A DNA stretch of 64,000 nt, from assembly GCA_016699875.1 (NCBI GenBank), contig CP064989.1, positions 328,788-392,787 of the forward strand, given 5' to 3'. The translations under genes and the position numbers were made by a program. Shown here in pieces: positions 2,394 through 59,811 of the stretch; the stretch's first letter is position 1, and each line of letters starts with the position of its first letter. This stretch comes from Candidatus Moraniibacteriota bacterium (GTDB taxonomy: Bacteria; Patescibacteriota; Minisyncoccia; Moranbacterales; UBA1568). The notes beneath the pieces were generated by a model, which did not search any database, was not told where the DNA came from, and worked only from the letters and a program-made list of their open reading frames with translations.

Positions 2394-4115
2394 TTAATTA
2401 TTTAGGTTTTTAAAAAAGTTTGCGTCAACAATTACGTTACTTATTCTACTCGAGTCTATCCGGTCAATAAAAACAGATTGGTTCATACCAAACGTCGTTG
2501 CAAAACTTTTATTTGAAATTAAATAACACTGCTTTCGTGTTCTAGTTAACCCAACAATAAACTGACATATCTCTTTATCAGTTGGTTTTTTCTGTATCTT
2601 AGGAAATTCTGTATTGTTTAAACCAACCAGAAAAACAAAAGATGCAGACAGTCCCTTGCAACCATTAAAGGACGTTATCTTTATTGGACTTTGCTTTTTA
2701 TCTTTGTCTTCAGCCTCTGGATCTTTTTTTAGAACCTTCTTTAATTCTTCTATTGTAATAGCAAGCTTATCTGTAACAACCTCTTCTTCATCTTCAGAGA
2801 GAGATTCATCTTTCTTAACCTTTTTCAGTATCTCTAAAACAGCAAGATGTTCATCTTTAAAGTCGGCAGGTATGAGATCTACTAAAGAAACTTGGTTTTG
2901 TTCCGATTCTACAAGCATTTGCTTTAGAATCTTTTTCTTCATTTCTATCTCCGAAAGAACTCTCCAACCGAGATTTGATTGGTTGTTTTTTAACAGAACT
3001 AAGTATCCATCTAATAAGTTGAGCGTATCGTTGGTAGTCTCTTTAAAATCTATATCTTTGAATTTCTTTGATAAGTATCCGTACACCTGGTTTAAATACT
3101 GAGTCTGACCAGCAATAAGGACGCAAGGGTAGTTACCTTTTTGTGCCTTTACCCAATCCTCCGGAGTAATTTTGTTTATCTCACTCTCAATATATTTTCC
3201 GATGTAATTATAATTATCTGTTTTTCTCTGTAATGAACATCTCGCATGAATAATTTTCGGATACTGAACACTCTCGGCTTCCTTATCAGGCAGGTAGCAA
3301 ACATATTCCTTGTTGATCCTGCCGACGAGCCTACCTACTGCTTGTGCTCTGCCTATTATGTCGTGAACTGCGCTAATAATAACCTCTGTACATCGGCTAC
3401 AAAACGGCAACGAGAATCTTATAAAATTCTTATCCGAAGCCTTGTTTCTAATAAATCTTGGGGAGGCATCTTTTAAGTCCTCGTATACTGCCTGATCATC
3501 ATCTCCCACTATGAGTGTTGGGCTTAGCTTGGAAAGCTCTTCAAGAAAAGAAACTTCTAAAAGATTAAAATCCTGATACTCATCTACCACAATCTGACCA
3601 TATGTAGGGATCACGGAGCTATCCTTCTTGAAAGATTGAAGTACTCGGTATACCGCATCATCGTGCCCAACAGCGTTGTAGTAAGTAGCTCTTGTCAGAA
3701 AAAACTTTAATTCTTCTCCTTTATTAAGATTTTGAAATACCTTTCTAAAGTTTTTATACTTATCTCCCGTTAAGTATTTGTTATCTGACTTTATTACTAG
3801 AGGTAGCTTTGGAAAGTAATAAAAAGATGAGGTAAGCCCATCAATTTTTAAAGTATGTAGAAGCTTTTTGCAATAACCATGAAAAGTGTGGGCTTCCGCT
3901 AATCCAGATAGATCCTTCTTTAGCTCATCAGCTAAGTTATTTATAAAAGTTAGAGCTAGAGATTTTACTTTCTTTTGCTGTAATAAAGATTTAAAAGTAA
4001 AACTTTTTCCGGTACCAGCCCCAGCGATAACAAGCTTAAATCTGTCATCCGACTCGACAAGCTCTTTGGTTAGTCTATCCCTTTCATTCTTTTGAAACTC
4101 TTTAATATCTGACAT
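2394..4115 (-). CDS. UvrD/Rep/PcrA-like superfamily 1 DNA helicase
   Basis: Walker A 'AGAGTGKS', motif Ia 'TFHGYC', motif II 'VVDEYQD', motif III 'GDDDQAVY', motif VI 'VGLTRTRK'; very AT-rich coding sequence; lysine/glutamate-rich insertion near C-terminal third. Confidence 0.75.
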   Translation of the reverse strand: MSDIKEFQKNERDRLTKELVESDDRFKLVIAGAGTGKSFTFKSLLQQKKVKSLALTFINNLADELKKDLSGLAEAHTFHGYCKKLLHTLKIDGLTSSFYYFPKLPLVIKSDNKYLTGDKYKNFRKVFQNLNKGEELKFFLTRATYYNAVGHDDAVYRVLQSFKKDSSVIPTYGQIVVDEYQDFNLLEVSFLEELSKLSPTLIVGDDDQAVYEDLKDASPRFIRNKASDKNFIRFSLPFCSRCTEVIISAVHDIIGRAQAVGRLVGRINKEYVCYLPDKEAESVQYPKIIHARCSLQRKTDNYNYIGKYIESEINKITPEDWVKAQKGNYPCVLIAGQTQYLNQVYGYLSKKFKDIDFKETTNDTLNLLDGYLVLLKNNQSNLGWRVLSEIEMKKKILKQMLVESEQNQVSLVDLIPADFKDEHLAVLEILKKVKKDESLSEDEEEVVTDKLAITIEELKKVLKKDPEAEDKDKKQSPIKITSFNGCKGLSASFVFLVGLNNTEFPKIQKKPTDKEICQFIVGLTRTRKQCYLISNKSFATTFGMNQSVFIDRIDSSRISNVIVDANFFKNLNN

Positions 4116-6737: not shown

Positions 6738-7732
6738 TAATGCAAACATTGGTACTCCAATGATAACCAAAGCCAACGCCTTCACCATTTCTTCAATCAG
6801 AAATGAAAATGAAGACCCCTGACCATCATTACAACAGTCAGGGGTTAATCCTTACCCTTACAAAGTACTCAATATTTCATTGCGCTCAACCCAAGACCAT
6901 AGGCAACACTTGTGAAGGCATCGACTGGAAGTATTTTCCCCTCCCCAAACCGGTCCAGGAAGATTCTCCTGACTCTTGGAATAAAGGAGGAACCTCCTGT
7001 TAAAAGAACGGTGTCCACATCCTGTAAAGAGATCCCAGCCCGAGACACTGTATCGTCCACGCAGACTTCAATCTTCTGAAACTTGTCTTCTGCCAGAGTT
7101 TCAAATGCATCTCTTGTGATTTCCTCCCGGATCACGATGCCTTTCTCGGAAAATTCGATGATGGAGGATTCCCTATCAGAGAGTTCTCGCTTCACCTTCT
7201 CGATAGCTCGGAACAGCATATAGCCAAGATTTTCGATAATCAGAGTGTGAAGATTTTTCACTGCTTTCTGATCCTCGTCGGACACCCCTCGAAGCGAGTG
7301 GATTATTTGAAGCGTCTTCTTGTCGCGAAGCTGTGGAATCATGTGCCACTCACAGAGCGTCATCGGAAGCCAAATTGGAAGCTCAAGAATTTGATCAGGC
7401 AACGATCCGCGAATCTTTGTGTCTCTGCCAAAGTGTTTTGCAAGTTCGTGCCACATGATAGAAGCATCAAAAGCATCGCCCGCGATATACACTCCGCCAG
7501 TTGCGAGAATATCTTTTTCACGATCTTCTCTCGAATCACGTTTTCCACCACGGAGCCGCATAACTACGAAGTCAGACGTTCCACCGCCGAAGTCACCCAT
7601 GAGCACCAGTTTCTCCTCCCCCTTTCGAAGGTCTGACTCATAGGAAAGCGTCGCCGCGATCGGTTCGTACACGAAGTGCACATTTGCAAACCCAGAACGA
7701 AGAGCTGCTGCCCGCAATCTTTCTTCCGCTAA

Positions 7733-8580
7733 GAACCTGTTTACAATCTTCTGGTACACTGAGGACATAATCCTCAAACCAAAAGAACCATGTATCCAAG
7801 CGACATAACCCGAGAACAATTCGAACACATCAGACCATTTCTCGAATCAACCAGGAAGAGAACCAAACCAAAGACACTTGATTCCTATGACGTATTCAAC
7901 GCTCTGCTCTACATTCTGGTCACGGGTTGCCAATGGAGGGCACTTCCCAAGGATTATCCAAAATGGCAGAGTGTCTATCGACACTTCCTTGTCTGGAAGG
8001 AACGAAAAACAAACAGACAGAGAGTATGCTTGAGCAAGTCTTAAAAAAATTGGTCGAACAAGAACGTATGAAAAATGGCAAACAATGCAAAACCAGTTTC
8101 TGCATCGTTGATGCTCAAAGTGTCAAGAATACAGATACGGCTCGAGAAAAAGGTTATGATGCAGGAAAAAAAGTTTCCGGTATCAAGCGACATATTCTCG
8201 TTGACACCAACGGATTGCCGCATGCGTTCACGGTAACCACTGCTAACGTCACTGATCGAAATGGAGCTATCCAAGCCGTCAAGGCAAACAAAAAAACACC
8301 TTTCACGGGTGGAGAAACTCTTGACTGATGGTAGTTATACCGGAGAAAACTTCGCCAAAGCGATCAAAGCATGTATCGGTGCGGAAGTGGGAGTAGCTAA
8401 ACGAAACGAATTGCATACGTTTGCCGTTCTTCCTCAGCGCTGGGTGGTCGAGAGAAGCTTCTCCTGGCTGGAGAAATGCCGAAGGCTCTGGAAGAATTGC
8501 GAACGGACACTGGATTCGAGCTTACAGATGATGGTTTTAAGTTTTGCTCGATTGTTGTTGAAAAGATTGTAAACAGGTTC
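7733..8580 (+). mobile_element. IS5-family insertion sequence (IS1031/ISL2-like), copy 1, with 3-bp TSD 'taa'
   Basis: Terminal inverted repeats 'gaacctgtttacaatctt' / 'aagattgtaaacaggttc'; flanking direct 'taa' at 7730-7732 and 8581-8583; internal DDE transposase reading frames; second copy at 58231..59080. Confidence 0.75.
7790..8572 (+). pseudogene. IS5-family DDE transposase, split into three frames by homopolymer indels (copy 1)
   Basis: ORFs 7790..8044, 7927..8328, 8261..8572 together equal the orfA/orfB of copy 2; A-run lengths differ from copy 2 at three sites (A5 vs A6 at the KERK site, A7 vs A8 at the LKK slippery site, A7 vs A6 at the KANKK site). Confidence 0.65.
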
Positions 8581-9096
8581 TAAGAGATCAAGCTCTCTGT
8601 CTTCTGAAAAGAGTACGGGACGACCCATGACAACCGTGTCCACGACATGTCCCACATGGAGTTCGCCGCGATGCTTGATAGTTTTCAGAATGAGCGCGAT
8701 TAAATCTTCGATTTCATAGCGCCTGCCAAAAACATAGGTTTCTTTGAAGCTCTTACTTGGCAGAAATGCCTTGATGGATTGCATGAGACGACCGTAGGTT
8801 CCGCCGTAATCAACGTATTGGTCAATAGCCTCCTGACCAATATTGATACCACCTTCCTCGTCAAAGAAAAGTACCGATTTGAGGGTGTGTGGCGATGGAC
8901 TCGATGGGTCAATATCAGCAATTGCGACGTTATTTCCCTTCGCTATTGCCAAAACAGAATTTGTGGTTCCAAAATCAAGACCAAATGCTATAGACATGAG
9001 AATATCCTCGTTTCTAATAAGTTTGAAAGGTGCTTCCCGTGTATATCACAAACTCTTCTAAATATCAATGGCTCGAATTTCTGAATAAAAAGAGTC

Positions 9097-23611: not shown

Positions 23612-25693
23612 ATGCTTTCCTCTCAAACATATCTCAGTGACATTGCAACGATCAAAAAGAGTTTCATCCCGAAATTCTCAGCACTTGGCATACGCACCGT
23701 TCAAGATCTCTTGTTTCACATTCCTTCTCGATATGAAGATTTCTCTCACATCAAGTCGATTGCGGACGCCATCGAAGGAGAAAAAGCGACATTCGAAGGA
23801 ACTGTCGGACATTTCCAAGAAAAAAAGACGTGGAAACGGCGCATGAGCATATTTGAGACAGATCTCACCGACGATTCGGGAACCATTCGATTGATCTGGT
23901 TCAACCAAAAACTGATTACCGGAAACCTGCCGCCTGACACGCGAATCCGCGTTTCCGGAAAAGTCGCCCGCGACCGCGACGGATTTGCCATGACATCGCC
24001 GGCGTTTGAGCGGTCCAGTCGCCGCCCGACACATACCGCGCGCCTCGTCCCCATCTACCCGGAGACGTACGGGCTCACATCAAAGTTTATCCGATGGCAA
24101 ATTGAGATGCTCTTCGAAAAAAAAGTGGGCATCCCTGACCCACTTCCGGAATCGCTCGTGGAAAAACTCCATCTGCCGACACTCCCCCGAACGCTTCGCA
24201 TGATTCACTTCCCAAAATCTCCGGAGGAAGTCGAGATTGCACGGAAACGCCTCGCTTTTGACGACATGTTTCTTGCCCAGCTCAAAAGCCTCGAACTGAA
24301 ATCGATTTGGAAACAGTCGTCCGCCGTTTCTTTTCCAAAAAACGAGAAATTCTTCACGGAAAGCGCACGTTGTTTTCCCTTTCCGCTTACCGCTGCACAG
24401 ACAAAAGCTATCGAAGAGATTCTCAACGACCTCGCCCGCGACATTCCGATGAATCGCCTGGTGAACGGGGACGTTGGGTCTGGAAAAACAGCAGTTGCCG
24501 CAGTTGCCGCACTTCGCGTCGCACAAGCCGGATTCCAAGTAGCACTTCTTGCTCCGACAGAAGTACTCGCTCGCCAGCATTACGAAACCCTCTCGAAATT
24601 CTTCGCGCAAACTTCGTTTCAGATTGCTCTGCTTACTCGATCTTCACACAGACTCGCCTCGGAAACCGTCGCCAAAGAAACACTCAAAAACGCCGTGAAA
24701 AGCGGACTTGCCAGCATTGTTATCGGCACGCACGCACTCATCCAAGAAGACGTGTCGTTTCGAAACCTGGCACTGGTTATCGTTGACGAACAGCACCGCT
24801 TCGGCGTCTCCCAACGAGCCGCACTCCAAGAAGCGACACGGCATTCGAAGGACGGGATGCCAAAAACAACGCCTCATCTCCTCACACTTACCGCAACACC
24901 GATACCGCGAACGCTTGGCATTGCCCTCCTTGGCAATCTGGATATTTCCATACTCGACGAAATGCCGAAAAATCGCCTCCCTATCGTCACCAAAATCGCC
25001 GCCACACGCGACGCCAAGGAAACAGTCTTCCGATTCGCTCGCCAAGAGATAAAAAAAGGGCGGCAAGTCTTCATCATCTTGCCGCTCGTCGAAGAGTCGG
25101 CCACGCTCTCCGAAGTCAAAGCCGCCAAAACGGAGCACGAGAAACTCTCTAAAAAAGTATTTCCCGAATTTTCCGTCGGACTGCTCTATGGAAAAATGAA
25201 ACCTGCCGAAAAGGAGAAAACGATGCGTGACTTCAAGGAAGGCGCCCTGCATGTCCTCGTCTCCACATCTGTCGTCGAAGTGGGCGTCGACGTGCCCAAT
25301 GCCACCGTTATGATTATCGAAAATGCCGATCGATTCGGACTCTCTCAGCTCCACCAATTCCGCGGCCGAGTCGGTCGAGGCGCGCACCAATCCTATTGTT
25401 TCCTCCTTCCAGGGAAAAACAGCACCAATGATCGCCTCGATGCTCTTGTCGAAAGCAATAACGGTTTCTCCCTTGCCGAAAAAGATCTGGAAATCCGCGG
25501 CCCGGGAGCGTTCTTCGGACTCCGCCAGTCCGGTATCCCCGATATCGCCATGAGCCACCTTGGGAACACCCGCCTCATAAAAATCGCCCAAGAAGAAGCT
25601 TCGACACTCCTCCTCGACGATCCATCCCTCGAAAAGCACCTATATCTCCGTGCCGCCCTCACTGAAATGACCGAGAACGTGCACTTGGAATAA
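23612..25693 (+). CDS. recG: ATP-dependent DNA helicase RecG
   Basis: wedge/OB N-terminal region, Walker A 'GDVGSGKTAVA', 'VDEQHRFGV' DEAD-like motif II, 'QLHQFRGRVGRG' motif VI. Confidence 0.85.
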   Translation: MLSSQTYLSDIATIKKSFIPKFSALGIRTVQDLLFHIPSRYEDFSHIKSIADAIEGEKATFEGTVGHFQEKKTWKRRMSIFETDLTDDSGTIRLIWFNQKLITGNLPPDTRIRVSGKVARDRDGFAMTSPAFERSSRRPTHTARLVPIYPETYGLTSKFIRWQIEMLFEKKVGIPDPLPESLVEKLHLPTLPRTLRMIHFPKSPEEVEIARKRLAFDDMFLAQLKSLELKSIWKQSSAVSFPKNEKFFTESARCFPFPLTAAQTKAIEEILNDLARDIPMNRLVNGDVGSGKTAVAAVAALRVAQAGFQVALLAPTEVLARQHYETLSKFFAQTSFQIALLTRSSHRLASETVAKETLKNAVKSGLASIVIGTHALIQEDVSFRNLALVIVDEQHRFGVSQRAALQEATRHSKDGMPKTTPHLLTLTATPIPRTLGIALLGNLDISILDEMPKNRLPIVTKIAATRDAKETVFRFARQEIKKGRQVFIILPLVEESATLSEVKAAKTEHEKLSKKVFPEFSVGLLYGKMKPAEKEKTMRDFKEGALHVLVSTSVVEVGVDVPNATVMIIENADRFGLSQLHQFRGRVGRGAHQSYCFLLPGKNSTNDRLDALVESNNGFSLAEKDLEIRGPGAFFGLRQSGIPDIAMSHLGNTRLIKIAQEEASTLLLDDPSLEKHLYLRAALTEMTENVHLE

Positions 25694-27170
25694 TCTCCAA
25701 CTCAGCGTCAGCATTCGCCCGCACACATACTCCGAGAAGGAATCCAAGGAATATCACGCCGAAGTGTCCGCTCCAGAGCCAGTGATCAAGAAAGAGAACA
25801 GGTAGAAGCGCGCAAAACACCGCGAGCGAAAGTGCATTCCTGCTTTTCCATGCTGAAAAGAGCCAGATAAGAAGTATGCGTGAAAAGAGCAGAAACCCAA
25901 CCAAACCGAGCTCAGCACATACCAGAATCGGCACAACATGCACCGGCTGAAACGCACCGACAAAATCCCCGACATCCGGAAACCGCCACATCGAAAACGC
26001 CGTGAAATTCCCGCCACCGACACCAAGAATCGGGTGTTCGCGTATGGTCCTAAATGCCTGATCAAGGAATATTTCTCGGTCCGAGAGAGAACCTTCACGC
26101 ACAAGCGTCGCCTCCGAAAATCGGCTTAGGGCGATATCGCGAACAAGAAAAAACGCCACCGAATAAGAAATGAAGGTCAAAAGAACTACAATAACTACAC
26201 TGCTTACCCATCCCCTTCCGTCATTCCCGCGAAGGCGGGAATCCAGATACCACAAGACTCCGGATGAATTGAAGCAGGATTTTCTCGGAAAATTATCAGC
26301 AATATCAACCGTCGAAAGGCGCGTTTCGGAAAAGTTTTCTCTTGGCACATCCGAATCTTGGTAAAGCGTAGATTCCCGCCTTCGCGGGAATGACAAGAAA
26401 AGAGAGCACTTCAGACATCGAATGAATCCAAAAAACAATACTCCCGTCCCAAAGAAAAACCCCATCCATCCGCTCCGTGAAAACGTGAGTACGAGCACAA
26501 AACTCAGAAGCGCGGTCGCCCCCAAAGAAGCAGCTCGAAAAGAAACCTTTTTCGCAGTCACTGAGAACCACCCGCCAAAAAGCGCCGCGACCGCAAGCGC
26601 TCCACCGAGCACATTCGGATGCTCGAATCCGCCGTAGGCGCGGAGGAATCGCCCGTTCTCGGTTTTCAAGACAAATGTCCCCCACCGCGAAGGATCATGT
26701 TCCGCCATACCAAGCAGCGTCGACAGCGCAACAAACTGCCCGACCCACTGCGAAAGCGCGAGCAGTGCCTGAATCGACATCGAGAGGAGGAAAACCGAAA
26801 TCGTCTTTCGAATAGAAAACCCGCCATATCGCGCAAGCACAAAAGCAAGCACCAGAAGCAACACTCGCCACGCAGAAAGGAATGCAAGACTCTCATCAAC
26901 CGCCCAGAGAGCAGACAAAAGCGACCACAGAAAGAGCGTGCTTATCGCAATGAACAGGCGATCGCGCGCAAGAGTGCGCCACACTCCCCGCTTTGCTCCA
27001 AAAACGAAAAATGCCGCGCACGTCAGAAGCGCCGCATCCGACAAATAGAGACCAATCGTCGCATACTGCCATTTCTCACCCCTCACAAACACTTCGTGTA
27101 CTATCCACACCGTCTGCCACGGCAAGAGAAAGACAAACGCGTACCACGAAAGTTGTCGTGCCGATTTCAA
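25659..27170 (-). CDS. O-antigen ligase/polymerase-family polytopic membrane protein; reading frame passes through a palindromic-repeat insertion
   Basis: many TM helices and O-antigen-ligase-like loop region; residues 'LSFPRRRESTLYQDS...DSRLRGNDGRGW' are translation of the REP-like units at 26220..26394; annotated N-terminus (27209) lies inside second repeat pair so true start probably near 27170 (MLKSARQ). Confidence 0.45.
   Translation of the reverse strand: MKSARQLSWYAFVFLLPWQTVWIVHEVFVRGEKWQYATIGLYLSDAALLTCAAFFVFGAKRGVWRTLARDRLFIAISTLFLWSLLSALWAVDESLAFLSAWRVLLLVLAFVLARYGGFSIRKTISVFLLSMSIQALLALSQWVGQFVALSTLLGMAEHDPSRWGTFVLKTENGRFLRAYGGFEHPNVLGGALAVAALFGGWFSVTAKKVSFRAASLGATALLSFVLVLTFSRSGWMGFFFGTGVLFFGFIRCLKCSLFLSFPRRRESTLYQDSDVPRENFSETRLSTVDIADNFPRKSCFNSSGVLWYLDSRLRGNDGRGWVSSVVIVVLLTFISYSVAFFLVRDIALSRFSEATLVREGSLSDREIFLDQAFRTIREHPILGVGGGNFTAFSMWRFPDVGDFVGAFQPVHVVPILVCAELGLVGFLLFSRILLIWLFSAWKSRNALSLAVFCALLPVLFLDHWLWSGHFGVIFLGFLLGVCVRANADAELEIIPSARSRSFQ
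26220..26394. repeat. Pair of inverted 24-bp palindromic units 'gtcattcccgcgaaggcgggaatc' flanking ~127 bp (MITE/REP-like), located inside a CDS
   Basis: left unit 26220-26243, right unit (reverse complement) 26371-26394; each unit itself a hairpin attcccgc-gaagg-gcgggaat. Confidence 0.7.
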
Positions 27171-27204
27171 CATAGCGCCAGCATAGCACCCATTACCCAT
27201 TGCC

Positions 27205-27334
27205 GTCATTCCCGCGAAGGCGGGAATCCAGACTCCACTTACCTCATGGAAAGATCATTGCAAGCTTTGTTCACAAAGTAAAAGTAATCGTCTCGAATTG
27301 GTGGAACAGAGATTCCCGCCTTCGCAGGTATGAC
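27205..27334. repeat. Second pair of the same palindromic units (right unit degenerate 'gattcccgccttcgcaggtatgac') with different internal sequence
   Basis: left unit 27205-27228 identical to copy at 26220 including 5' flank 'ccgtcattccc'; internal sequence unrelated to first pair. Confidence 0.65.
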
Positions 27335-27748
27335 AAAAAGGAAAATACTTCCCGTCAAGCACAGCTGAAATTTCCAACCAAACAAAAAAGCCCCCATATA
27401 TATAGAGACTTCAAAAAAAATCGAGGGCGGAGGGAAATTTATTTCCACACCCGCCCCAACTCACTAGCTTATCCTCGCTGTCCAACACGAACGACGCTAT
27501 TTGTGCTTCGAGAAGGCAGGTACCGCCCCTTACAGGTCCTATCACTCCACTGATGAGAAATACTCCCAAAATCGACAGGAGTGATAACAACCCGCGATCC
27601 ATCATTAATGGTCAGTTGCCTGACCTCGATCCGACGGCGATGAAACACACCATCCGCATCGCGGAAGCCATGGCGAATGACAGTTACTTCTACTATCTTA
27701 CTCATTCTCACTTTCTCCCGAGTAGGTCGCCTAGCGACCGGTTAGTTT

Positions 27749-32472: not shown

Positions 32473-34055
32473 TTATGTTGTTTGCCTGCGAGTCGACGGC
32501 ACTCGCTTATCTCTTTCTTCAATTCAACCATGCGAAGCTCCCGACTCACCATGATAGCGTTCAGCCGCTCCGTCTCTTTTCGCTTCTTTACTTCCGCTTC
32601 TTCCAGCTCCTTCCGATCGGTAATGTCTATAGCTGTATGCAAAAATCCCAAAAAGACACCCGACGAGCTCGAAAATGGAACACTATTATCAAGCACCCAT
32701 CGGTAGTTGCTCTTTGAAAACAAAACGCGATATTCCATACGAAGCGGCTTTCGATTTTCAAAAGCAGACAGACATTGTGCCCTATACCCCGGCTCGTCAT
32801 CGGGATGAATGCTCTTTTGCCATATGTCAGTAAAATGTTCTTTGGAACTTTCACCGATAAGCGAAAGCGTCTGTTTATTCGCATAGAGACATGTCCGATC
32901 ACGATCAATCATCCACAGAAATGCCGGCATCGTATCGGCAATCGTCTGGAATCTCTGTTCGGCGATATCTCCCCGCTCGCGCACCTGAAGAAGAGAGTGG
33001 AGCATGGCATTGATCTCCTCAGCAAGCTTGGCAATCTCATCGCTTCCGGAAAATTCTATTCCCGATTTCGACACACCCTTCTCGCGTGCCCGCTCAAGAG
33101 ATCGACTCAAGTAATTCACACGAGAAAGAATCGTCCAGTGAAGCAGGAAAAAAATAAGCGCCGTCGACACCAAGAAAAACCCGAGCAAAGAAAGAATGAC
33201 GACTATCTTCGATACGCCGAATGCCGTCGGAATGGCACGTTCTATTTTATAGAAAAGAAGCGGGCTACCAAAAACATCGGGAACAAATCCATATCCGGAA
33301 ATAGTCGATTCCCCGACAACTGTTTGAACCTCACCCGAAGAAACCAGACTATTGGAAACACTCAGAAAGTCCGCGGGGAAATTCCTCGAGCCGTACAGTT
33401 CGAACGAAACCGGATATCCGAGAAAATTGGAAAGTCCGTACCGATACGAATCATCGATCGTCTTCACAAAGACGATCGTGCCGCGGGAGGGACCTTCGCC
33501 GCGAGACGTCATGATGGGCCGCGTTGCAATAAACGCAAGTCCCGATGAGAGTTGGACCATGCCCGAATGAACCGCCATCGAAGAATCGAAAGTTGAAAGA
33601 ACCGATCCCGGCTTTACAAGATCTCCGATATCGTCCGGAACGGGAGTCGATTCGCGAGTACGACTATCCATTCCCTGCTGTGCTAATACATTCCCATCCC
33701 GATCGGAGATAACGATAAAATTCACACCGAGAATGTCGAGGGAATCAACCGGAAGGTTCGATTCGACAAACTCTTCCGTCGGCGAATTTGCAAACGAATA
33801 CAAATCGTCCCATTGCGACCAATCAAGAAGCTGCCGATCCATATTCCGAATATCCCGATCAATCACGCGACCGGTCCACTCGACATTTCCCTGAACGGAT
33901 CGCTGTTCATTTTCGATCAATCTCCCCAAGAAGAAAATACCCAACCATGCATAGAGCGCGATCAACACCACTTCCAAAGCATATGCCACAATAAAAAATA
34001 TTTTCTTTCGAAGAGTCATAGGACGAGAGTTTTTGTTTGAGAATGAGTCATACAA
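32469..34055 (-). CDS. Membrane-bound sensor protein with extracytoplasmic domain, HAMP-like region and PAS domain, no kinase core
   Basis: two TM segments, PAS 'FQTIADTMPAFLWMIDRD', coiled-coil tail; 4-bp overlap with downstream kinase gene. Confidence 0.5.
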   Translation of the reverse strand: MYDSFSNKNSRPMTLRKKIFFIVAYALEVVLIALYAWLGIFFLGRLIENEQRSVQGNVEWTGRVIDRDIRNMDRQLLDWSQWDDLYSFANSPTEEFVESNLPVDSLDILGVNFIVISDRDGNVLAQQGMDSRTRESTPVPDDIGDLVKPGSVLSTFDSSMAVHSGMVQLSSGLAFIATRPIMTSRGEGPSRGTIVFVKTIDDSYRYGLSNFLGYPVSFELYGSRNFPADFLSVSNSLVSSGEVQTVVGESTISGYGFVPDVFGSPLLFYKIERAIPTAFGVSKIVVILSLLGFFLVSTALIFFLLHWTILSRVNYLSRSLERAREKGVSKSGIEFSGSDEIAKLAEEINAMLHSLLQVRERGDIAEQRFQTIADTMPAFLWMIDRDRTCLYANKQTLSLIGESSKEHFTDIWQKSIHPDDEPGYRAQCLSAFENRKPLRMEYRVLFSKSNYRWVLDNSVPFSSSSGVFLGFLHTAIDITDRKELEEAEVKKRKETERLNAIMVSRELRMVELKKEISECRRLAGKQHN

Positions 34056-34073
34056 ATCAAATCAACCAAATGA

Positions 34074-36308
34074 TTATTCGTATCGAAGCGCATTCAATGC
34101 CGAGATTTTTGTCGCTCGCCGAGCCGGATAGAGCCCGGTCAATACGCCGACCGCCAACGAGAAAATAAGGATCGTAATGACAAAGAGATTCGGTATGTAC
34201 GCAACATCGAGAACACCGAGATTTTTGTCACGGAAAAACGCAACCGTCGAGATGAGCACGCCGATAGACTTTCCTGCCAAAAATCCCAAAAAAAGCCCGA
34301 GCACGCCGCCAAAGAAAGACATTACCATGGATTCCGTAAGGAAAAGCTCTTGAACCTCAAACGCCTTCATGCCCATCGCTTTCATAAGTCCCACCTCGCG
34401 CGTCCGTTCAAGAAGCGAGACTGTGAGCGTGTTAAACATGCCAAGCGCCGCAACGCCGAGCGCCGCCATCCCGAGAAGCGCCAGCACAATTCTCGCCGTC
34501 CCGAAAAAATTATTGATCTGTTCCACCGTATCCGCAACGGAAGTTGTCACATAGCCCATACCTTCGATCTGTCGCCGCACATTCGCAAGCGATTCCTGCG
34601 TCGCAACTGTCAGTTTTACCTGGGAATAGTTCACTACGCCAAGCGTTCGCGCGTCGATAAACGGCATATAGAATACCGGCGTCTTATCATCCGGAATTAC
34701 CCCGATAATCGAATACTCCGATTCGACGGACTCCGCCTTCTGAGCCTTGCCGCCAAGCAGAGAACCGGATATCACAAAGGAGACATTGAATTTCTTGCCG
34801 ATAGCTTCAGACTCGGACAGCGAAAGCACTTGAAGCATAGCGCGATTCACTACCGCTTCGCGTTTCGCCGCATCGCCGAGTGCGACTCGATCCACCGATT
34901 TATCTCCTTCGGACGAATCGCCGAGATCCAGTTCAACCCACTCTCCGTCCGATGAAGACACCTTGATATTATTCACTGTCGCCGACGTATCGTCTGAACC
35001 GGACGCCGATTCAGACAAAGCGGCGCTTTCGGGCGAAACAACCGCCTCAGTACTCTCACCAAGCACCATTCCGGAAACACTGTCTGGCTCATCGTCAGAT
35101 TGATGCATCAATGAGATCTCAACCTCGTCGTCCACAAGAGCGAAATATCCCTGTTCGACTCGAACGGATCCGCTGGAATTTTTCGCCGGAGAAAAACCAT
35201 CGGAGCACTCACTGACATCACCACAATCGGAAGATTTTTCCCAGAGAGGCATTTCCGATGAAATCCACTTTCCAAATGGCTCCCCGTCCGTACCGCGATA
35301 CGCCTCGCCGGAATCCGGAACCGTGCTTCCGTAGGGCTCCCCGGCAACGAGATCGCCGGAAACAGGAACGCGGGAAATACGACCATAGCCGAGAAGTCTC
35401 GCTTTCGAGTCGGGAGATTCCCGCAAGCGAACCCAGAGAGTCGAATCCGCCCGCACCGAAACCGGCTCAAGAATATCTCCAAATCCCTTGGGATTCACCG
35501 AATCGGAGATGCCAGCAACCGTTTTCACGGCAGGAAGGTTTGCGGAAAGATCATTGCTCTCAAAAATTTTTCCGGAAGACGGCTGAATCGCCGACTGACG
35601 CAGATAGTCCGAAGTAACCGCATACACCGCCATATCCGATACCGAACCCTGATAATTCACTTTGCCAACCACGGCAACAAGCGGCGCAACCGATTCGACA
35701 TTCGGAATTTCACGCATGTTTGAAAGCGTCTCATCGTCTATCTTGACTTTGCCGCCGGCCTGAGGCGACACATCCATCTGTCGCATCTCTTCCAGTCGCG
35801 CCACCTGGGAGACAACCAGCCGTTGAACACCATACCCCAACGAAACCAGAAATACGATTGACGCAATACCAAGCGCCATGCCGCCGATAGTAATCGCGGT
35901 CCGCGTTTTCTTCACCTTCATATTGCGGACAGCGATACCGATAAGACTGATGCGATCGATGGATTTCCGCCGCTCAATACGAAACAGTTTCTCAATTTTA
36001 CTGTAGAGAGCGGCAAACATCTCCTCGCTTGAACGGGGAGACGGGGAGCGAAGAAGCTTCCGAACATGTCCATACACTGAAAATATCCCGCGAGCCACAA
36101 TATAAAAGAGGAGCAGCACGACAAAGAGAACCAAGCGGAGAAATGTACTCTTGAAAAATTCGGGAATCCCGACTATCGAACGCCACAGACGCACGAAGAA
36201 CGGCGCGCGTCGAGCAGCGTCGGCGGTTTCCAGAACAGCAACGCCATGAGCGGCGGCGTCCTGCACATCTTGAGTAAATTTTTTCTTGCCAAAAAATGGG
36301 AAATGCAT
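34074..36308 (-). CDS. ABC transporter permease, MacB/FtsX-like with large extracytoplasmic domain
   Basis: FtsX-type TM helices around the large domain and at C-terminus ('MKAMGMKAFEVQELFLTESMVM...'); paired with downstream ATPase. Confidence 0.65.
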   Translation of the reverse strand: MHFPFFGKKKFTQDVQDAAAHGVAVLETADAARRAPFFVRLWRSIVGIPEFFKSTFLRLVLFVVLLLFYIVARGIFSVYGHVRKLLRSPSPRSSEEMFAALYSKIEKLFRIERRKSIDRISLIGIAVRNMKVKKTRTAITIGGMALGIASIVFLVSLGYGVQRLVVSQVARLEEMRQMDVSPQAGGKVKIDDETLSNMREIPNVESVAPLVAVVGKVNYQGSVSDMAVYAVTSDYLRQSAIQPSSGKIFESNDLSANLPAVKTVAGISDSVNPKGFGDILEPVSVRADSTLWVRLRESPDSKARLLGYGRISRVPVSGDLVAGEPYGSTVPDSGEAYRGTDGEPFGKWISSEMPLWEKSSDCGDVSECSDGFSPAKNSSGSVRVEQGYFALVDDEVEISLMHQSDDEPDSVSGMVLGESTEAVVSPESAALSESASGSDDTSATVNNIKVSSSDGEWVELDLGDSSEGDKSVDRVALGDAAKREAVVNRAMLQVLSLSESEAIGKKFNVSFVISGSLLGGKAQKAESVESEYSIIGVIPDDKTPVFYMPFIDARTLGVVNYSQVKLTVATQESLANVRRQIEGMGYVTTSVADTVEQINNFFGTARIVLALLGMAALGVAALGMFNTLTVSLLERTREVGLMKAMGMKAFEVQELFLTESMVMSFFGGVLGLFLGFLAGKSIGVLISTVAFFRDKNLGVLDVAYIPNLFVITILIFSLAVGVLTGLYPARRATKISALNALRYE

Positions 36309-40200: not shown

Positions 40201-43200
40201 CCGGCATATGTCGTTCCGATCAAAAGATCGCTCGATGAATCCGAAATCGACATGGAAACAGACCGCGAATTATTGAGCGTCCCGTCAATATACAGACTCA
40301 TAGTGGAGCCGTTATACGTCGCCGCCACATGATGCCAACTCGTATTAAAAGAGCTGGTCGCCGACTGAAGAAAAGCATTGTTGCCGAATGACCACACGGC
40401 CGCATCAGCATTCGCAGTGTTTCCGGTACCGGCGTAAAACTTTCCTTTGTACGCACTGAATGCTCCGACTTCCTCAATCGTCGATCCCCAACTTCCACTG
40501 ATATTATCACCGCCGACCTGCGTCCATGATGAACCGACATATCGCCACACCTCTCCATCGCCGGCAGTTGTCCCCAGCCCGGCATAGAGCGCGCCATTGT
40601 AAACGGCAAGCGTCCGAACCCGCTCATATGTTCCACTTGCCCAACTTCCCCCGACATCGTCACCGCCAATCATAGTCCACGATGAGCCGTCATACTTCCA
40701 CACTTCCGCATCATCGGTCGATGTCCCGAGTCCGACATAGAGAAACCCGGCGTAGACAATCATGCTGTCTACCTGTTCATACGTACTATTGGCCCAGCTC
40801 GAGTTGACACCGTCTCCACCAACACGGCTCCACGACGGCGTGCCATCACAGTTCGTACACTCCCACACTTCGGCATCGCCGGCACTCGAGCCGAGACCGG
40901 CATATATCTTTCCGGCATATATGCCAAGTGTCGTCACCCGCTCAAAGTTCGTCGTCCAACCGGAATAGAGACTATCCCCACCAACTTTGGTCCACGTCGA
41001 TCCGTTCCATCGCCACACTTCGGCGTCATTAGCGCTATTCCCCAAACCGGCATAGAGAAACCCTCCATACGAAGCAAGCGAGTTCACCTCTTCGAAATTC
41101 GTCGTCCAGCCGGAGTTCAAACTATCACCGCCGATCTGCTCCCAAGTCGATCCATCCCAATGCCACACTTCGGCGTCATTGGCACTTGAACCCAAACCGG
41201 CATACAACTCACCTCCATGCCCGATCAAGCTCGTCACAGTTTCATACGTATTGGAAATCCAACTATTATTCACGCCTTGACCGCCAATGAGTTCCCAGGA
41301 TGAACCGTCAAATCGCCACACCATGGCATTGCCGATAGTGGCAACGCCTGTCCCCGCATACAGATAGTCGCCGGTCACATTCAAGACCTCGACACTCCGA
41401 AGACCGCGAAAACCCCAACTGAAGTTTATGTAATCTCCGCCGATAAGCTCCCATGATGAACCATTCCATGCCCATTCCTGTGCCGAAACCGTTGAACTTG
41501 AAGTGCTGACACCCGCAAAGAGCGTCGACCCGGATACAGCAAGCGTACTCACAATCGTGTGCGTACTCGAAAAACTCCCATTGACTCCATCGCCGCCGAT
41601 TTTGGTCCATGCTGATCCGTCAAAACTCCACACCTCATTGTCTCCGGCTGTTGATCCGAGACCGGCATAGAGCGTCGTTCCATCATTCGCGAGAGAATAC
41701 ACCATTTCATAGTTCGAACTGTCCCAGCTTGAACTTACGGTGTCACCGCCAATTTTGGTCCATGTTGAGCCGTTCCATTTCCAGACTTCCGCATCGCCAG
41801 CCGTCGATCCGAGACCGGCATAGAGATTCCCGCCGAAGTACGTCATCGAATAGACATACTCGTATGTCGCATCCCAGCTCGAATTCAAGCTGTCGCCGCC
41901 GATTTTGGTCCACGTTGATCCGTTCCATTTCCAGACTTCGGAATCTCCGGCCGTTAAACCCAAGCCGGCATACACATTCGTACCGTCATTTACCAAACTG
42001 TAGACGCCTTCGTAATTCGTCGTCCAGCCGGAGTTTAAGCTGTCGCCGCCGATTTTGGTCCACGTTGATCCGTTCCATTTCCAGACTTCCGCATCATTTG
42101 CTCCCGTCCCAAGTCCGGCATAGAGCTCTCCGCCGACAAACGTGAGCGCATTGACCGCTTCAAACGTATTGATTTGCCAGCTCGAATTGAGCGCATCACC
42201 ACCGATTTTTGTCCACGTTGATCCGTTCCATTTCCAGACTTCCGCATCGCCAGTTCCGCTTCCGAGTCCGACATAGAGATTCGTCCCGTCATTCGCCATG
42301 ACATACACCGCTTCAAACGTATTGATTGTCCAACAGTTATTGAGACCGTCACCACCAATCTGTGTCCATCTCGTTCCGTTCCATTTCCAGACTTCCGCAT
42401 CGCCCGTTCCATTTCCCGTCCCGACATACAAATCTCCCCCAAGAACATTTGAGGATTCAATAGTCGGATTCCCGTTCAAGTCCCAACTCCCGTTTATATC
42501 ATTTCCTGCCTGCTGCGTCCATCCGGATGCCGAATCATTTGCCAGCTCATAGGTGAGCTTGCCCGTTTCATTGTCGTAGTACAATTGATAGTCGCCCTTA
42601 TCAACAATTCCCTGGCGCTGAGCATGGCTTCCTGCCGAAAATGCCGAAGAGAATTTCGTCCACGCTTCAATCGTATTCGCCTGCGACAGAGAATTTTCAG
42701 CCGAATCCGGCACCGATGCAAACGCCGTTGTTCCATTGAAAGAGAGTGCATTGTTGAGATTTCCGGCTACGAAACTTCCACCCGATACCGTCGCGTGATT
42801 TGCGTTCGACGAACTGTCATTCGCCGTCGATCCACTCGATTCATCGAAATGGTAAAGTGCCACCGTATTGTCATCATCGGTGTAATTCTTAACCGAGAGA
42901 CGAGATTCCGTATTCGCGCTATCAATCGTAACTCCGCTTGAAGAGACGTACTCGCTTGATGTTGAAAAATCCCATGTCTCGCTGATTTCTCCGTCAGCGA
43001 GAATACTGTGGATCCGACCGGAAAGAAACAAAAATGCGCCTGCTGCCACGCAAGCGGACAAGACAGACAGACCGATATATCTCGGCTTCAGACTCCATAA
43101 AAACCGCGCAGTCCACACAAAGACTCGCGCCACAGAAACCGCGCCCGAAGCAAAAAGGCGATAGAAATTATTGTATTTTCGCATAGCATCCAAACGACGG

Positions 43201-45512: not shown

Positions 45513-45710
45513 TTATCTCTTAAGAACCTGCTTACAATCTCTCTTTCGTCACGAGATTTTCAAATTTTGAGCGAAAAACATGAAGATTGAGAAAGGCTAC
45601 TCGGAGAGTAACCTGACAAAATCTGAATGTTTTGCAGCCAAAATTTGAAAGTCGGAGTAGAATATGGAGATTGTAAACAGATTCTAAGGTACGGATAATT
45701 CGCGCATCCG

Positions 45711-57904: not shown

Positions 57905-58230
57905 TATCCGCTGAATTTTTCTACAAAAATCAAAAAAACCGGCTTGTGCCGGTTCTTTTTATTGATATTTCAGAGACAACAGTTTTCAGCAAACAGCGAA
58001 TCCGCTCAAAGAAATCCGCTTATTGCGAATCCGATTCACTTTCGGAATCAGATCCCGAATCGGTCCCAAATGCCGCTTTCAAATCAGCTCGAGCCTGCTC
58101 AAGCGCCAGCTTGAAATCCGAGAGCGCCGTTGCAAAAGCCACCTTTTTTGTCTCAGCGAGCGTCTTTATCTGTTCGCCGACTGTGTCCGCATCTTTCCGC
58201 TCACTCTCCATAGAAGTTCGAGCCGCTTTG

Positions 58231-59080
58231 AGAACCTGTTTACAATCTTTTCAACAACAATCGAGCAAAACTTAAAACCATCATCTGTAAGCTCGAATCC
58301 AGTGTCCGTTCGCAATTCTTCCAGAGCCTTCGGCATTTCTCCAGCCAGGAGAAGCTTCTCTCGACCACCCAGCGCTGAGGAAGAACGGCAAACGTATGCA
58401 ATTCGTTTCGTTTAGCTACTCCCACTTCCGCACCGATACATGCTTTGATCGCTTTGGCGAAGTTTTCTCCGGTATAACTACCATCAGTCAAGAGTTTCTC
58501 CACCCGTGAAAGGTGTTTTTTGTTTGCCTTGACGGCTTGGATAGCTCCATTTCGATCAGTGACGTTAGCAGTGGTTACCGTGAACGCATGCGGCAATCCG
58601 TTGGTGTCAACGAGAATATGTCGCTTGATACCGGAAACTTTTTTTCCTGCATCATAACCTTTTTCTCGAGCCGTATCTGTATTCTTGACACTTTGAGCAT
58701 CAACGATGCAGAAACTGGTTTTGCATTGTTTGCCATTTTTCATACGTTCTTGTTCGACCAATTTTTTTTAAGACTTGCTCAAGCATACTCTCTGTCTGTT
58801 TGTTTTTTCGTTCCTTCCAGACAAGGAAGTGTCGATAGACACTCTGCCATTTTGGATAATCCTTGGGAAGTGCCCTCCATTGGCAACCCGTGACCAGAAT
58901 GTAGAGCAGAGCGTTGAATACGTCATAGGAATCAAGTGTCTTTGGTTTGGTTCTCTTCCTGGTTGATTCGAGAAATGGTCTGATGTGTTCGAATTGTTCT
59001 CGGGTTATGTCGCTTGGATACATGGTTCTTTTGGTTTGAGGATTATGTCCTCAGTGTACCAGAAGATTGTAAACAGGTTC
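58231..59080 (-). mobile_element. IS5-family insertion sequence, copy 2, TSD 'tga'
   Basis: same terminal inverted repeats as copy 1; flanking 'tga' at 58228-58230 and 59081-59083; carries orfA (59023..58700) and orfB (58761..58240) overlapping at an A8 slippery run. Confidence 0.75.
58240..59023 (-). CDS. IS5-family DDE transposase, orfA/orfB (putative programmed -1 frameshift at A-run)
   Basis: orfA 'MYPSDITREQFEHIRPFLES...CQWRALPKDYPKW' (HTH region), orfB 'DAQSVKNTDTAREKGYDAGKKVSGIKRHILVDTNGLP...' DDE region. Confidence 0.7.
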
Positions 59081-59811
59081 TGAGACTCGCCCGCAGCGTC
59101 TCGCGGACCATCGCCGGGTCGACCCCTGATTCGCAATCACTCTTTGCTGTCGCAAAGGCGGCATCAACAGCCACTTTGAAAGTAGCCAGACTCGAATCAA
59201 CCGTCGTCTTCTTACTGCCGATAGCCGCATCAACCCCGGCGCGGAACGCTTCAATAGCCGCATCGACTGCTTGTTGCCGATTGGAAACTGCCGTTTCCAC
59301 AGCCGCCTTAAATGCGGCAACCGCTGCCTGTTTCTCCGCATCATCCCCCGCTTGTTCAAGCAACTTCGCATACATCTCCTCGCGCTTCGTGTCGCGCTCA
59401 TTTCGATTCGTCTCAAGCGTTGAGTCGCGCTCATCGCGGTTCTCATCAAAAATATTCCGACGCGTCGATTTTCGTTCCAATATTCCTTTCTGGGCATCAT
59501 TCAGGCGCACGCTTAATCTCTCATTCCGTTCGATCATAGCTGCGCATGTGTTCTGCTGGCGATCCAGCATATTCTCTTCTCGATTCGCTTTCCGATCCCC
59601 GGCATTTCCATCCATAAAAGCGCGCTTCTGTATGCTATCGTTCTCAACCTGTGTCTTCCGCTCCGTCGCAAGATCGTGCGCTCGCACCCAGGGAGCTCGC
59701 TTCCCTCCACCATCTGTACTCCCGTCAGCATTTTCATCGGCGCGTACCGAAACAATGCCCAAAGAGAACACGATCGCACAGACGGCGAATCCGATCGCTC
59801 CAAACGAAAAT

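Follow-up and report, generated by a model that had tools for sequence, protein, structure and literature searches.

Two short elements in a 64,000-nucleotide stretch of a Candidatus Moraniibacteriota genome (contig CP064989.1, positions 328,788 to 392,787, hereafter the window) can be identified with high confidence as non-coding dimers built of CGTC-1-type REP hairpins (a family that also goes by the names dRS3, NTS/SRM and RPE-6), and one of them, E1, as an in-frame insertion in a gene for a membrane protein of the Wzy_C / O-antigen-ligase family. The other, E2, lies upstream of the same gene. The explanation that serves best as a whole, and which we regard as probable, combines CGTC-1 dimers and the in-frame insertion of E1 with a link to an Ssn-type nuclease. 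The hairpin family itself is already known and very widespread, and E1 is a clear but ordinary fresh case of a behaviour described before.

Anatomy and arrangement of the hairpin units

An earlier note on this DNA had reported a 24-bp unit, itself a hairpin, that occurs four times in two convergent pairs, and both the count and the hairpin are borne out. The 24-mer GTCATTCCCGCGAAGGCGGGAATC is found without mismatch at 26220-26243 (+), 26371-26394 (-) and 27205-27228 (+) and with two mismatches at 27311-27334 (-), and was matched in none of 100 dinucleotide-preserving shuffles; these four are all the units in the 64-kb window. The gap between the arms is 127 nt in the first pair and 82 nt in the second, and the ends that the pairs share reach beyond 24 nt, the left ones agreeing at 94% over 36 nt and the right ones at 81% over 42 nt. 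Each unit consists of a tag (CGTC or TGTC), an 8-bp stem formed by ATTCCCGC and GCGGGAAT around the loop GAAG, and a tail CCA (CTA in unit B of E1). Read on the strand of the unit, the tag is CGTC at 26219 and 27204, and TGTC at 26395 and 27335. The CGTC-1 REPs have been defined by an unpaired 5' tag CGTC (variants TGTC and CCTC), an 8-bp stem, a 4-nt loop and a tail near CCA, and have been equated with dRS3 of Neisseria and RPE-6 of R. conorii (Di Nocera, De Gregorio and Rocco 2013, PMC3733652).

The NTS is the single-stranded DNA (ssDNA) target of the Ssn GIY-YIG nucleases, of which SsnA cuts only NTS-bearing ssDNA, with three nucleotides 5' of the palindrome critical for cleavage and a C just 3' of it for binding (PMC11893778). 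The published 28-nt NTS consensus CGTCATTCCCGCGMAVGCGGGAATCYRG is matched exactly by two units (unit A of E1 and unit A of E2), and three units in the window match the degenerate SRM pattern, where shuffles would give 0.3. The bases critical for SsnA are kept in all four units, i.e. GTC before ATTCCC (ATACCT in the decayed unit B of E2) and C after GGGAAT. Both dimers have the same plan: two 28-nt units in inverted orientation, the CGTC tags pointing outward, a 10-nt extension CCAG-NNN-CCAC that is lineage-specific, and a variable A/T-rich spacer. As read from the sequence, the unit contains stops in only one of its six frames, the other five giving peptides. An Rfam scan returned only a miRNA-precursor match on the long hairpin, which at 31 bits lies below the gathering score of 130.

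An in-frame dimer in a Wzy_C membrane protein gene

The gene that carries E1 extends over 25659..27173 (-) and encodes 504 aa from its conserved start; the NCBI product has 513 aa (start 27200), and the mechanical open reading frame (ORF), 25659..27209, has 516 aa. Its assignment as O-antigen-ligase-like in the earlier note is supported by a match to Pfam PF04932 (E 9.4e-12, 45.4 bits against a curated cut-off of 31.7) and by a WaaL-like fold, the best match to a solved structure being WaaL 7tpg_B (E 4.8e-6, TM-score 0.60 on the target). The protein is 100% identical to QQS16069.1 (Candidatus Moraniibacteriota).

E1 is a dimer of 177 nt (26219..26395) that is read through on the minus strand as 59 codons, corresponding to residues 261-319 of the Wzy_C protein. 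Unit A (26219..26246, +) has the tag CGTC and the tail CCAG. The spacer (26244..26370, 127 nt) is an imperfect palindrome starting with the lineage-specific end extension CCAGATACCAC. Unit B (26368..26395, -) contains the exact 24-mer with the tag TGTC, the tail CTAC and the same stem and loop as unit A, and fits the SRM pattern. On the gene strand unit A reads ...LDSRLRGNDG and unit B reads LSFPRRRES, and the peptide encoded across 26219-26395 includes, e.g., ESTLYQDSDVPR; the peptide quoted in the earlier note was correct, as was its statement that the first pair lies inside the ORF without breaking the frame, for there are no stops over the 59 codons. The whole dimer is predicted to form one long hairpin, both as ssDNA (-43.3 kcal/mol, z -5.9) and as RNA (-85.2 kcal/mol, z -7.0).

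The peptide had been placed in a loop of a polytopic membrane protein, and the AlphaFold2 model agrees, with residues 261-321 disordered (pLDDT < 50) between the helices 233-260 and 320-351. The insert has hydrophobic segments on either side and 10 K+R within, and the loop is probably cytoplasmic. Purifying selection acts on the gene both before and after E1: omega is 0.23 on the 5' side and 0.15 on the 3' side in comparison with the orthologous locus L121, and 0.27 and 0.22, respectively, in comparison with L123. Furthermore, all the invariant positions of the Wzy_C family that flank E1 are retained.

The second dimer and the start of the gene

E2 (27204-27335) comprises unit A (27204..27231, +), which matches the NTS exactly and adjoins the gene start, a spacer of 82 nt (27229..27310) that starts with CCAGACTCCAC, and a decayed unit B (27311..27335, -), GTCATACCTGCGAAGGCGGGAATC, with two stem mismatches and the tag TGTC. 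It too is predicted to fold as one hairpin in ssDNA (-30.6 kcal/mol, z -4.8). The overlap of the second pair with the start of the gene, as reported earlier, turned out to be an artefact of the mechanical ORF: the ATG at 27209, which falls within the E2 unit, is merely the first start of that ORF, and the start of the NCBI product (27200) lies 5 nt outside the unit. Across the orthologues it is the ATG at 27173 that is conserved as the start; E2 is therefore intergenic and upstream of the gene, not part of it. Beyond E2, two terminator-like hairpins with T-runs (27387..27457, -) close the upstream transcription unit, and are kept in orthologous loci whether or not these carry E2 (sequences compared in L121-L127); a terminator scan flags 27412-27387, and the second hairpin was read from the sequence. 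A promoter scan gave nothing above shuffles, and no promoter was placed relative to E2.

The unit family in other genomes

The unit is far from unique to this locus, occurring in at least 120 stretches of GTDB genomes and at least 120 of metagenomes. Among the 240 loci listed, 114 of the 129 adjacent pairs closer than 250 bp are convergent. The spacer of E1 is not a conserved multi-copy sequence: when 42 dimers are compared, similarity to it is confined to the orthologous copies, and the others share the ends alone.

The likeness to Rickettsia palindromic elements (RPEs) that the earlier note had drawn is in essence correct. In its favour, the family has been equated with RPE-6 (PMC3733652), and the exact 24-mer forms in-frame dimers in the isoleucyl-tRNA synthetase (IleRS) gene of a Rickettsia endosymbiont (L058); it is also present in a Tisiphia genome (L084). 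On the other hand, the idea that the family is built for read-through, as suggested for RPEs, is rejected: a whole dimer has on average 0.52 open frames, and 24 of 42 dimers have none. As more than half of these dimers lack an open frame, the in-frame copy E1 is to be seen as a survivor of selection; only 4 of 45 dimers in the metagenome sample lie within long ORFs, against 66% of random positions. Phage integration at dRS3 was also considered, and nothing in the window points to such an event.

History of the insertion sites in orthologous loci

In an alignment of 24 proteins, the E1 insert is found in the window, P0002 and P0009, and 11 orthologues (including P0012, P0013, P0017, P0020-22 and P0025-28) have instead a loop that is only 19-29 residues long. 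On this alignment the 59 codons of E1 were inserted into the loop, as had been proposed. A further orthologue, L166, has a 175-bp dimer at the same site; in general, the dimer occurs in orthologues of 59-73% identity, and more distant ones are without it. The earlier note had regarded a shared segment as a sign that it is native; it is indeed shared by the close orthologues (P0002, P0009 and L166), and absent from the 11 others. Since the close orthologues share the insert, it is old or was exchanged, rather than being recent.

Dimers have collapsed to single hairpins in relatives at both sites. At the E1 site, an in-frame deletion of 156 nt sets L122 apart from L121 and has left it with one hairpin. 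At the E2 site, a lone hairpin of 26 nt is present in L121, and nothing in L126 and L127. Such singlets may arise by deletion between the 8-nt direct repeats made by the palindromic stems. No direct repeat indicative of a target-site duplication flanks E1 or E2, and the empty sites are too diverged to define the junctions.

There is a substantial, if minority, chance that the dimers of the window and P0002 on the one hand, and of P0009 and L166 on the other, are independent insertions or exchanged cassettes at a permissive loop that captures elements repeatedly. In a quick neighbour-joining tree of the 24 proteins, which carries no support values, the dimer-bearing genes are split over two clades and mixed with insert-free genes and genes bearing other inserts. 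The loop that holds E1 in the window contains a different hairpin element in L127 (P0014), the core of which recurs at 95% identity between genes of L166, at a site unoccupied in the window, and a third kind of palindromic insert in L125; in addition, P0011 joins a P0002/P0003 backbone to a P0005-type loop cassette. However, the dimers of the window and L123 occupy the same codon position and have spacers of 127 nt that align without gaps at 52.8% identity, and this combination of equal length and position with such spacer identity fits the prediction of simple descent with neutral drift. A single old insertion is nevertheless not established, because the distribution over the gene tree is patchy and some alleles are mosaic.

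It has also been considered, as an unlikely reading, that the units are signals kept by the host and more than remnants of a selfish element, with E2 and E1 at the two ends of a ~780-bp stretch that opens a surface-glycan gene, serving as control sites for recombination or transformation, by analogy with the NTS-gene-NTS arrangements that surround surface-protein genes in Neisseria. Both E1 units are identical between the window and L123 (48/48) though the spacer is at 52.8% and third codon positions are at 44-51%; perfect units would also be expected if other copies had converted them or if an element had re-inserted at that site. The E1 spacer is 89.8% identical to that of L121, with a dS of 0.24 against 0.73-1.36 in the flanking gene, and identity along the locus peaks at E1 and next to E2. 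The mosaics P0011 and P0010 have their breakpoints beside the insert, but come from contigs of 1.6-2.0 kb that could be chimeric assemblies. A role in transformation would be in line with the finding that SsnA reduces transformation by NTS-bearing DNA (PMC11893778); yet decay is already under way in unit B of E2, dimers have been lost in relatives without apparent harm, and most dimers of the family are intergenic and lack such an arrangement.

Possible relation to GIY-YIG nucleases

The 240 loci listed include 12 convergent unit pairs at a spacing of 250-600 bp, and a GIY-YIG ORF lies inside 11 of them (the twelfth, L120, was left out of the check). On other Moraniibacteriota contigs, a single-domain GIY-YIG gene of 96-97 aa is bracketed by 34-nt ends, GTCATTCCCGCGAAGGCGGGAATCCAG-NNN-CCAC, which are common to E1/E2 and to these elements of 377-409 bp; the nuclease-carrying elements in L155, L170, L175/L220, L228 and L234 end in ...GGGAATCCAG-NNN-CCAC, as do E1 and E2, and in L170 and L228 short dimers and nuclease-carrying elements are found on one contig. 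Unit-flanked GIY-YIG proteins are on record as Candidatus Moraniibacteriota / Moranbacteria (MEI8103358.1, MEI8104070.1 and OGI18589.1). Given the common 34-nt ends that bracket the nuclease gene, E1 and E2 therefore look like miniature derivatives of unit-nuclease-unit elements, and may stand to them as MITEs do to insertion sequences. Derivation by internal deletion is not demonstrated, because the spacers of the dimers have no clear sequence in common with the nuclease-carrying elements beyond the ends. Taken together, these observations make a link of E1 and E2 to an Ssn-type nuclease plausible, though it remains tentative and falls somewhat short of probable.

Under this link, each unit would fold in ssDNA into its 8-bp hairpin and be bound by the Ssn-type nuclease, which would nick a few bases 5' of the hairpin, as has been demonstrated for SsnA of Neisseria. 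E1 may have survived because its length is a multiple of three, it is stop-free, and it entered a tolerant, probably cytoplasmic loop. We know of no case in which transposition by an Ssn nuclease has been shown. That unit-ssn-unit elements are insertion-sequence-like has already been suggested in print.

No Ssn-type gene was found within the 64-kb window, and the only GIY-YIG protein found for the source genome is QQS16009.1 (P0138), of 81 aa and a different subtype. It was rejected as the cognate Ssn, being 29% identical to a unit-flanked protein, without the KKWNRxWKIRLIE stretch, and with relatives that are not unit-flanked; on the contig of a close relative (L128), no units adjoin that relative's copy of the gene. 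A PDB sequence search with the Moraniibacteriota GIY-YIG protein gave only a spurious WD40 match.

The dimers could instead be REPINs moved in trans by RAYT, an IS200/IS605-like Y1 transposase, with the GIY-YIG gene as a mere passenger or a user of the repeats. Bertels and Rainey assign ATTCCCGCGCAGGCGGGAATC, as its REPIN, to a Group-2 RAYT of Neisseria, and the inverted-dimer layout, seen in the prevalence of convergent pairs below 250 bp, is REPIN-like. We nonetheless rate this as quite improbable: the tag is CGTC, against GTAG for RAYT-linked REPs, Di Nocera et al. saw no RAYT flanked by CGTC units (PMC3733652), and 11 of the 12 longer convergent pairs in the 240 loci enclose a GIY-YIG ORF, and none a larger gene. 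Finally, that E1 is native coding sequence, or the gene a pseudogene open by chance, has next to no probability, and the presence of the peptide in close orthologues notwithstanding, is refuted by the loop of 19-29 residues in 11 orthologues, by segment ends that are a repeat of hundreds of unrelated loci, by omega of 0.15-0.25 downstream of the insert, and by the invariant Wzy_C positions kept on both sides.

Implications

With the dimers read as CGTC-1 elements, the range of this hairpin-repeat family and its suspected nuclease partner is extended to the candidate phyla radiation (CPR), and E1 provides a clean, datable case in which a membrane protein carries a CGTC-1 repeat in frame. The miniature dimers, whose lineage-specific 34-nt ends are common to GIY-YIG elements, lend comparative support to the published insertion-sequence-like suggestion. 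A bolder synthesis, which we offer as speculation and do not expect to hold, is that CGTC ends and a small GIY-YIG nuclease form an autonomous/miniature mobile pair in CPR, with the host using the perfectly conserved units within and next to this surface-glycan gene as recombination or transformation control sites for the exchange of loop cassettes; if true, this would be an insertion-sequence-like system run by a site-specific ssDNA nuclease, not by a transposase. For annotation, SFPRRRES, DSRLRGND, VIPAKAGI, HSREGGNP and IPAFAGMT are translated repeats, not protein motifs, and a start codon placed on the unit's ATGAC is suspect.

Comparison with known systems

The CGTC-1 REPs resemble E1 and E2 in a stem that opens with A-T and then T-A, a 4-nt loop, a CCA tail and a CGTC/TGTC tag. 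They are mostly inverted homodimers with spacers of 20-100 bp, with some in-frame copies in known genes, and their survey found no dedicated enzyme (PMC3733652). The spacers of E1 and E2 are longer (82-127 nt), and their CCAG-NNN-CCAC ends are common to GIY-YIG-carrying elements; the hosts in the survey were Proteobacteria, Chlorobi, Bacteroidetes, Spirochaetes and Thermotogae, whereas the host here belongs to the Patescibacteria (CPR). With the NTS/Ssn system the window shares two units identical to the 28-nt consensus, and the unit-GIY-YIG-unit layout occurs in the same candidate phylum. The role described for that system is in transformation, not mobility, and neither intragenic copies nor CPR hosts come up in the main text of the paper (Nat Commun 2025, PMC11893778).

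As in the REPIN-RAYT system, an inverted REP pair and its spacer form one hairpin and singlets are decay products, but the tag is CGTC instead of GTAG, and the bracketed gene encodes a GIY-YIG nuclease instead of a Y1 transposase. In the NIMEs (Neisseria intergenic mosaic elements), RS segments lie between dRS3 repeats in arrays next to surface-protein genes. E1 and E2 are likewise variable segments bounded by dRS3-type hairpins, with hints of cassette exchange, but they stand alone as two dimers, of which one lies within a gene. Like MITEs, they are short and non-coding, with terminal inverted repeats common to a longer enzyme-coding element; they differ in that no transposase and no target-site duplication were seen, and their mobility is putative. 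As to the RPEs of Rickettsia, the classic RPE-1 is a longer and different palindrome. Many Rickettsia genes carry an RPE, whereas here one gene in the 64-kb window does so and only 4 of 45 metagenome dimers lie in long ORFs; what E1 has in common with them is that a palindromic repeat is read through in frame and the gene remains functional.

Two convergent pairs of a known hairpin unit

The 24-mer GTCATTCCCGCGAAGGCGGGAATC occurs three times in the window without mismatch, at 26220 (+), 26371 (-) and 27205 (+), and a fourth time, with two mismatches, at 27311 (-), while no match was found in 100 dinucleotide-preserving shuffles. Repeat comparison within the window arranges the copies as two convergent pairs, as an earlier note made from the sequence alone had described, and the similarity between the pairs exceeds the 24-mer, extending over 36 nt (94%) on one side and 42 nt (81%) on the other. 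With their one-base tags counted, the pairs, or dimers, span 26219-26395 (E1) and 27204-27335 (E2). Each unit is built of CGTC (or TGTC), ATTCCCGC, GAAG, GCGGGAAT and CCA, and fits the definition of the CGTC-1 REP class, i.e. a CGTC/TGTC tag, an 8-bp stem starting with A-T pairs, a 4-nt loop and a CCA tail (PMC3733652). The 28-nt 'Neisseria transformation sequence' (NTS) CGTCATTCCCGCGMAVGCGGGAATCYRG is matched exactly at 26219-26246 and 27204-27231, and a third unit conforms to the degenerate Ssn-related motif, giving three matches in total versus 0.3 in shuffles. The 94-aa GIY-YIG nuclease SsnA targets the Ssn-related/NTS motif specifically in single-stranded DNA; it cleaves on the 5' side of the hairpin, at a distance of a few bases, and requires the three bases before the palindrome and the C after it (PMC11893778). 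All four units in the window keep these critical bases. E1 and E2 are members of a described family, and the earlier reading of them as elements resembling Rickettsia palindromic elements is supported with corrections: Di Nocera et al. regard Neisseria dRS3 and the RPE-6 of Rickettsia conorii as equivalents of the CGTC-1 class (PMC3733652).

Uniqueness of the unit to this locus would have spoken against that reading, but the genomes of GTDB species representatives contain the exact 24-mer in at least 120 stretches. Among the matches listed, the hosts include Pseudomonadota, Bacteroidota, Chloroflexota, Planctomycetota, Nitrospirales, Myxococcota, nine Patescibacteria genomes, a Rickettsia endosymbiont and a Tisiphia, and conservation across these stretches ends directly after ...ATC-CAG. 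Metagenomes searched for the lineage-specific end ...CCCGCGAAGGCGGGAATCCAG-NNN-CCAC likewise gave at least 120 stretches; those listed include 45 scorable dimers, mostly of 145-175 bp. Units of Sphingomonadales (loci L028, L067, L048, L011 and L037) have a common extension of their own, ...GGGAATCCATCACC..., seen at solo units as well as on the ends of a GIY-YIG-carrying element in L028, the same co-variation of ends with lineage as in Moraniibacteriota.

The window also holds other repeats. An insertion sequence of ~858 bp with 22-bp terminal inverted repeats (CTAAGAACCTGTTTACAATCTT) is present in two inverted copies, 99-100% identical and 50 kb apart (7729-8586 and 58226-59084); judged from their sequences, the ORFs resemble a transposase of the IS5 family with a frameshift. 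An Hsp70-like gene (minus-strand ORFs 6869-7828 and 8434-8997) is interrupted by the first copy, and a 167-bp miniature with the same ends lies at 45523-45689. A long array of ~150-153-nt repeats with 60-89% identity (40486-42530) is presumably a repeat-domain protein gene.

An in-frame insertion in a WaaL-like protein

As the earlier note had stated, the minus-strand ORF 25659..27209 holds E1 without a stop; its 177 nt make up 59 codons (residues 261-319) and encode the odd peptide quoted there. With 100% identity, the encoded protein corresponds to QQS16069.1 from a Candidatus Moraniibacteriota MAG, which is named 'O-antigen ligase family protein', and it matches Pfam Wzy_C; its AlphaFold2 model (mean pLDDT 71, pTM 0.74) has WaaL (7tpg_B) as its only significant solved-structure match. 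In an alignment of 24 orthologues, the loop at the E1 site has only 19-29 residues in eleven, and therefore E1 is an insertion, as had been proposed. The peptide itself is not private to the window: SFPRRRES...DSRLRGNDG stands at the same site in P0002 (73% identity) and P0009 (59%), and a further orthologue, in L166, carries a 175-bp dimer there. Orthologues with the same segment, which the earlier note had named as evidence against an insertion, do exist, but the eleven with short loops lack it.

Residues 261-321 have pLDDT below 50 and lie between helices 233-260 and 320-351, a placement with which hydropathy agrees; the loop carries 10 K+R. The N-terminus of WaaL lies inside the cell, and counting helices from such an N-terminus, we infer that the E1 loop is cytoplasmic, which would put the conserved GEKWQYAT, GGFEHPN and post-helix 345-400 loops outside. 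A pseudogene is ruled out by omega on both sides of E1, i.e. 0.23 (5') and 0.15 (3') versus L121, the contig of P0002, and 0.27 and 0.22 versus L123.

The earlier note had E2 overlapping the annotated gene start. The ATG at 27209 belongs to a unit, as part of its ATGAC end, and the 513-aa NCBI product implies a start at 27200; however, the N-terminus common to the orthologues starts at 27173, and therefore E2 lies upstream of the gene, with the start codon on one side and, on the other, two conserved terminator-like hairpins that belong to the upstream unit. The E2 site holds a single 26-nt hairpin (GTTATCCCTGCGAAAGCAGGAATGAC) in L121, only a remnant in L125, and nothing in L126 and L127. At this position, upstream of its orthologous gene, L123 has five tandem CCCCATT heptamers (3930-3975), similar to two motifs in the window, (ACCCATT)2 at the flank of E2 and ATGGGT beside E1.

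In-frame copies elsewhere

Five of the six reading frames of the unit are open (VIPAKAGI, SFPRRRES, HSREGGN, DSRLRGND, IPAFAGM). Pfam-confirmed hosts are a Mur ligase with a dimer within its middle domain (L012), IleRS of the Rickettsia endosymbiont (L058), PrmC of a Patescibacteria genome (L071), HsdM (L110), a restriction-modification methylase (L118) and UvrA (L023); verified metagenome cases are the Wzy_C orthologue (dimer) and a FemAB gene (singlet, i.e. a lone unit). Nevertheless, only 44 of 137 units in the GTDB loci listed fall in stop-to-stop ORFs of at least 150 aa, versus 84% of random positions, and in the metagenome sample listed 4/45 dimers and 16/68 singlets are in long ORFs, versus 66%. 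Dimers have 0.52 open frames on average, and 24 of 42 have none, which rejects in-frame carriage as a designed property; together with the long-ORF deficit, it makes the in-frame copies rare survivors.

History of the two sites

L122 (the contig of P0003) matches L121 in the aligned flanks shown and lacks 156 nt, leaving one hairpin formed from the outer half of each unit, with the frame kept. The palindromic stems place ATTCCCGC and GCGGGAAT as direct repeats within a dimer, and deletion between them would yield both singlets, i.e. in L122 and at the E2 site of L121. In P0002/P0003 the unit matching window 26371-26394 has a 21-nt insertion (CCATGCCTACCGGCAGGCAGG) in its hairpin loop (L121 insert region), itself hairpin-forming and translated as PCLPAGR.

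Between the window and L123 both units are 24/24 identical, while the 127-nt spacer is 52.8% identical without gaps and the gene 63-66% (third codon positions 44-51%). Versus L121, the spacer is 89.8% identical with dS 0.24, the flanking gene has dS 0.73-1.36, and identity along the locus reaches its maxima at E1 and next to E2. Selection at the locus may have kept the units perfect, as may gene conversion from other copies or re-insertion.

In a neighbour-joining tree without support values, dimer-bearing genes fall in two clades, both of which also include insert-free genes and genes with other inserts, these being different palindromes. P0014 (L127 2245-2397) has an element with a 21-bp A/T-rich stem in this loop; its hairpin core is found again, with 95% identity, between genes of L166 (13847-13908), where the window (34020-34075) is empty with only a ~55-bp gap, which suggests that these genomes carry a second mobile hairpin family. 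A third palindromic insert of ~70 codons occupies the same loop in P0004-P0008, P0010 and P0011 (L125 4796-4972), its left edge bearing a faint likeness to a decayed CGTC unit. P0010 and P0011 are mosaics whose breakpoints flank the loop: the latter joins a P0002/P0003 backbone (96-99%) to a P0005-type loop cassette, and the former a P0005 backbone to a P0003-type stretch directly after the insert. Recombination at the insert may account for them, as may assembly chimeras, their source contigs being 1.6-2.0 kb. Thus the loop is at least a permissive site, which E1 may have entered once or several times.

Possible link to GIY-YIG nuclease genes and relation to known systems

No GIY-YIG ORF was found in the 64-kb window. 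The source genome encodes an 81-aa GIY-YIG protein, QQS16009.1, ~60 protein accessions from the ligase; it was rejected as the unit-linked nuclease, being of a different subtype with relatives that are not unit-flanked. Among the 120 GTDB loci listed, six from Pseudomonadota have small GIY-YIG ORFs bracketed by or abutting units. In the metagenome loci L155, L170, L175/L220, L228 and L234, a 96-97-aa GIY-YIG gene sits between convergent units with a spacing of 377-409 bp. Such a gene is enclosed in 11 of 12 convergent pairs spaced 250-600 bp among the 240 loci listed; the sole pair without a detected GIY-YIG ORF (L120 1474-2009, 536 bp) may hold a decayed nuclease gene. Exact look-up assigned the proteins of the 377-409-bp elements to Candidatus Moraniibacteriota / Moranbacteria MAGs. 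The terminal 34 nt of the Moraniibacteriota elements are the same as those of E1 and E2, proteobacterial elements have other end extensions, and short dimers and gene-carrying elements occur together on single contigs (L170, L228). No target-site duplication was visible.

In-gene copies, the dimer architecture and the RPE-6/dRS3 equivalence (PMC3733652), as well as the GIY-YIG nuclease link (PMC11893778), are already in the literature. Added here are a CPR host for CGTC-1-type units, an in-frame copy, characterised in detail, in a WaaL-like protein whose relatives show singlet, dimer and empty states, and lineage-specific ends common to miniature dimers and GIY-YIG-carrying elements. On this comparative evidence, the dimers appear to relate to the GIY-YIG-carrying elements as a MITE does to its parent element, which fits the IS-like reading raised by the Ssn authors (PMC11893778).
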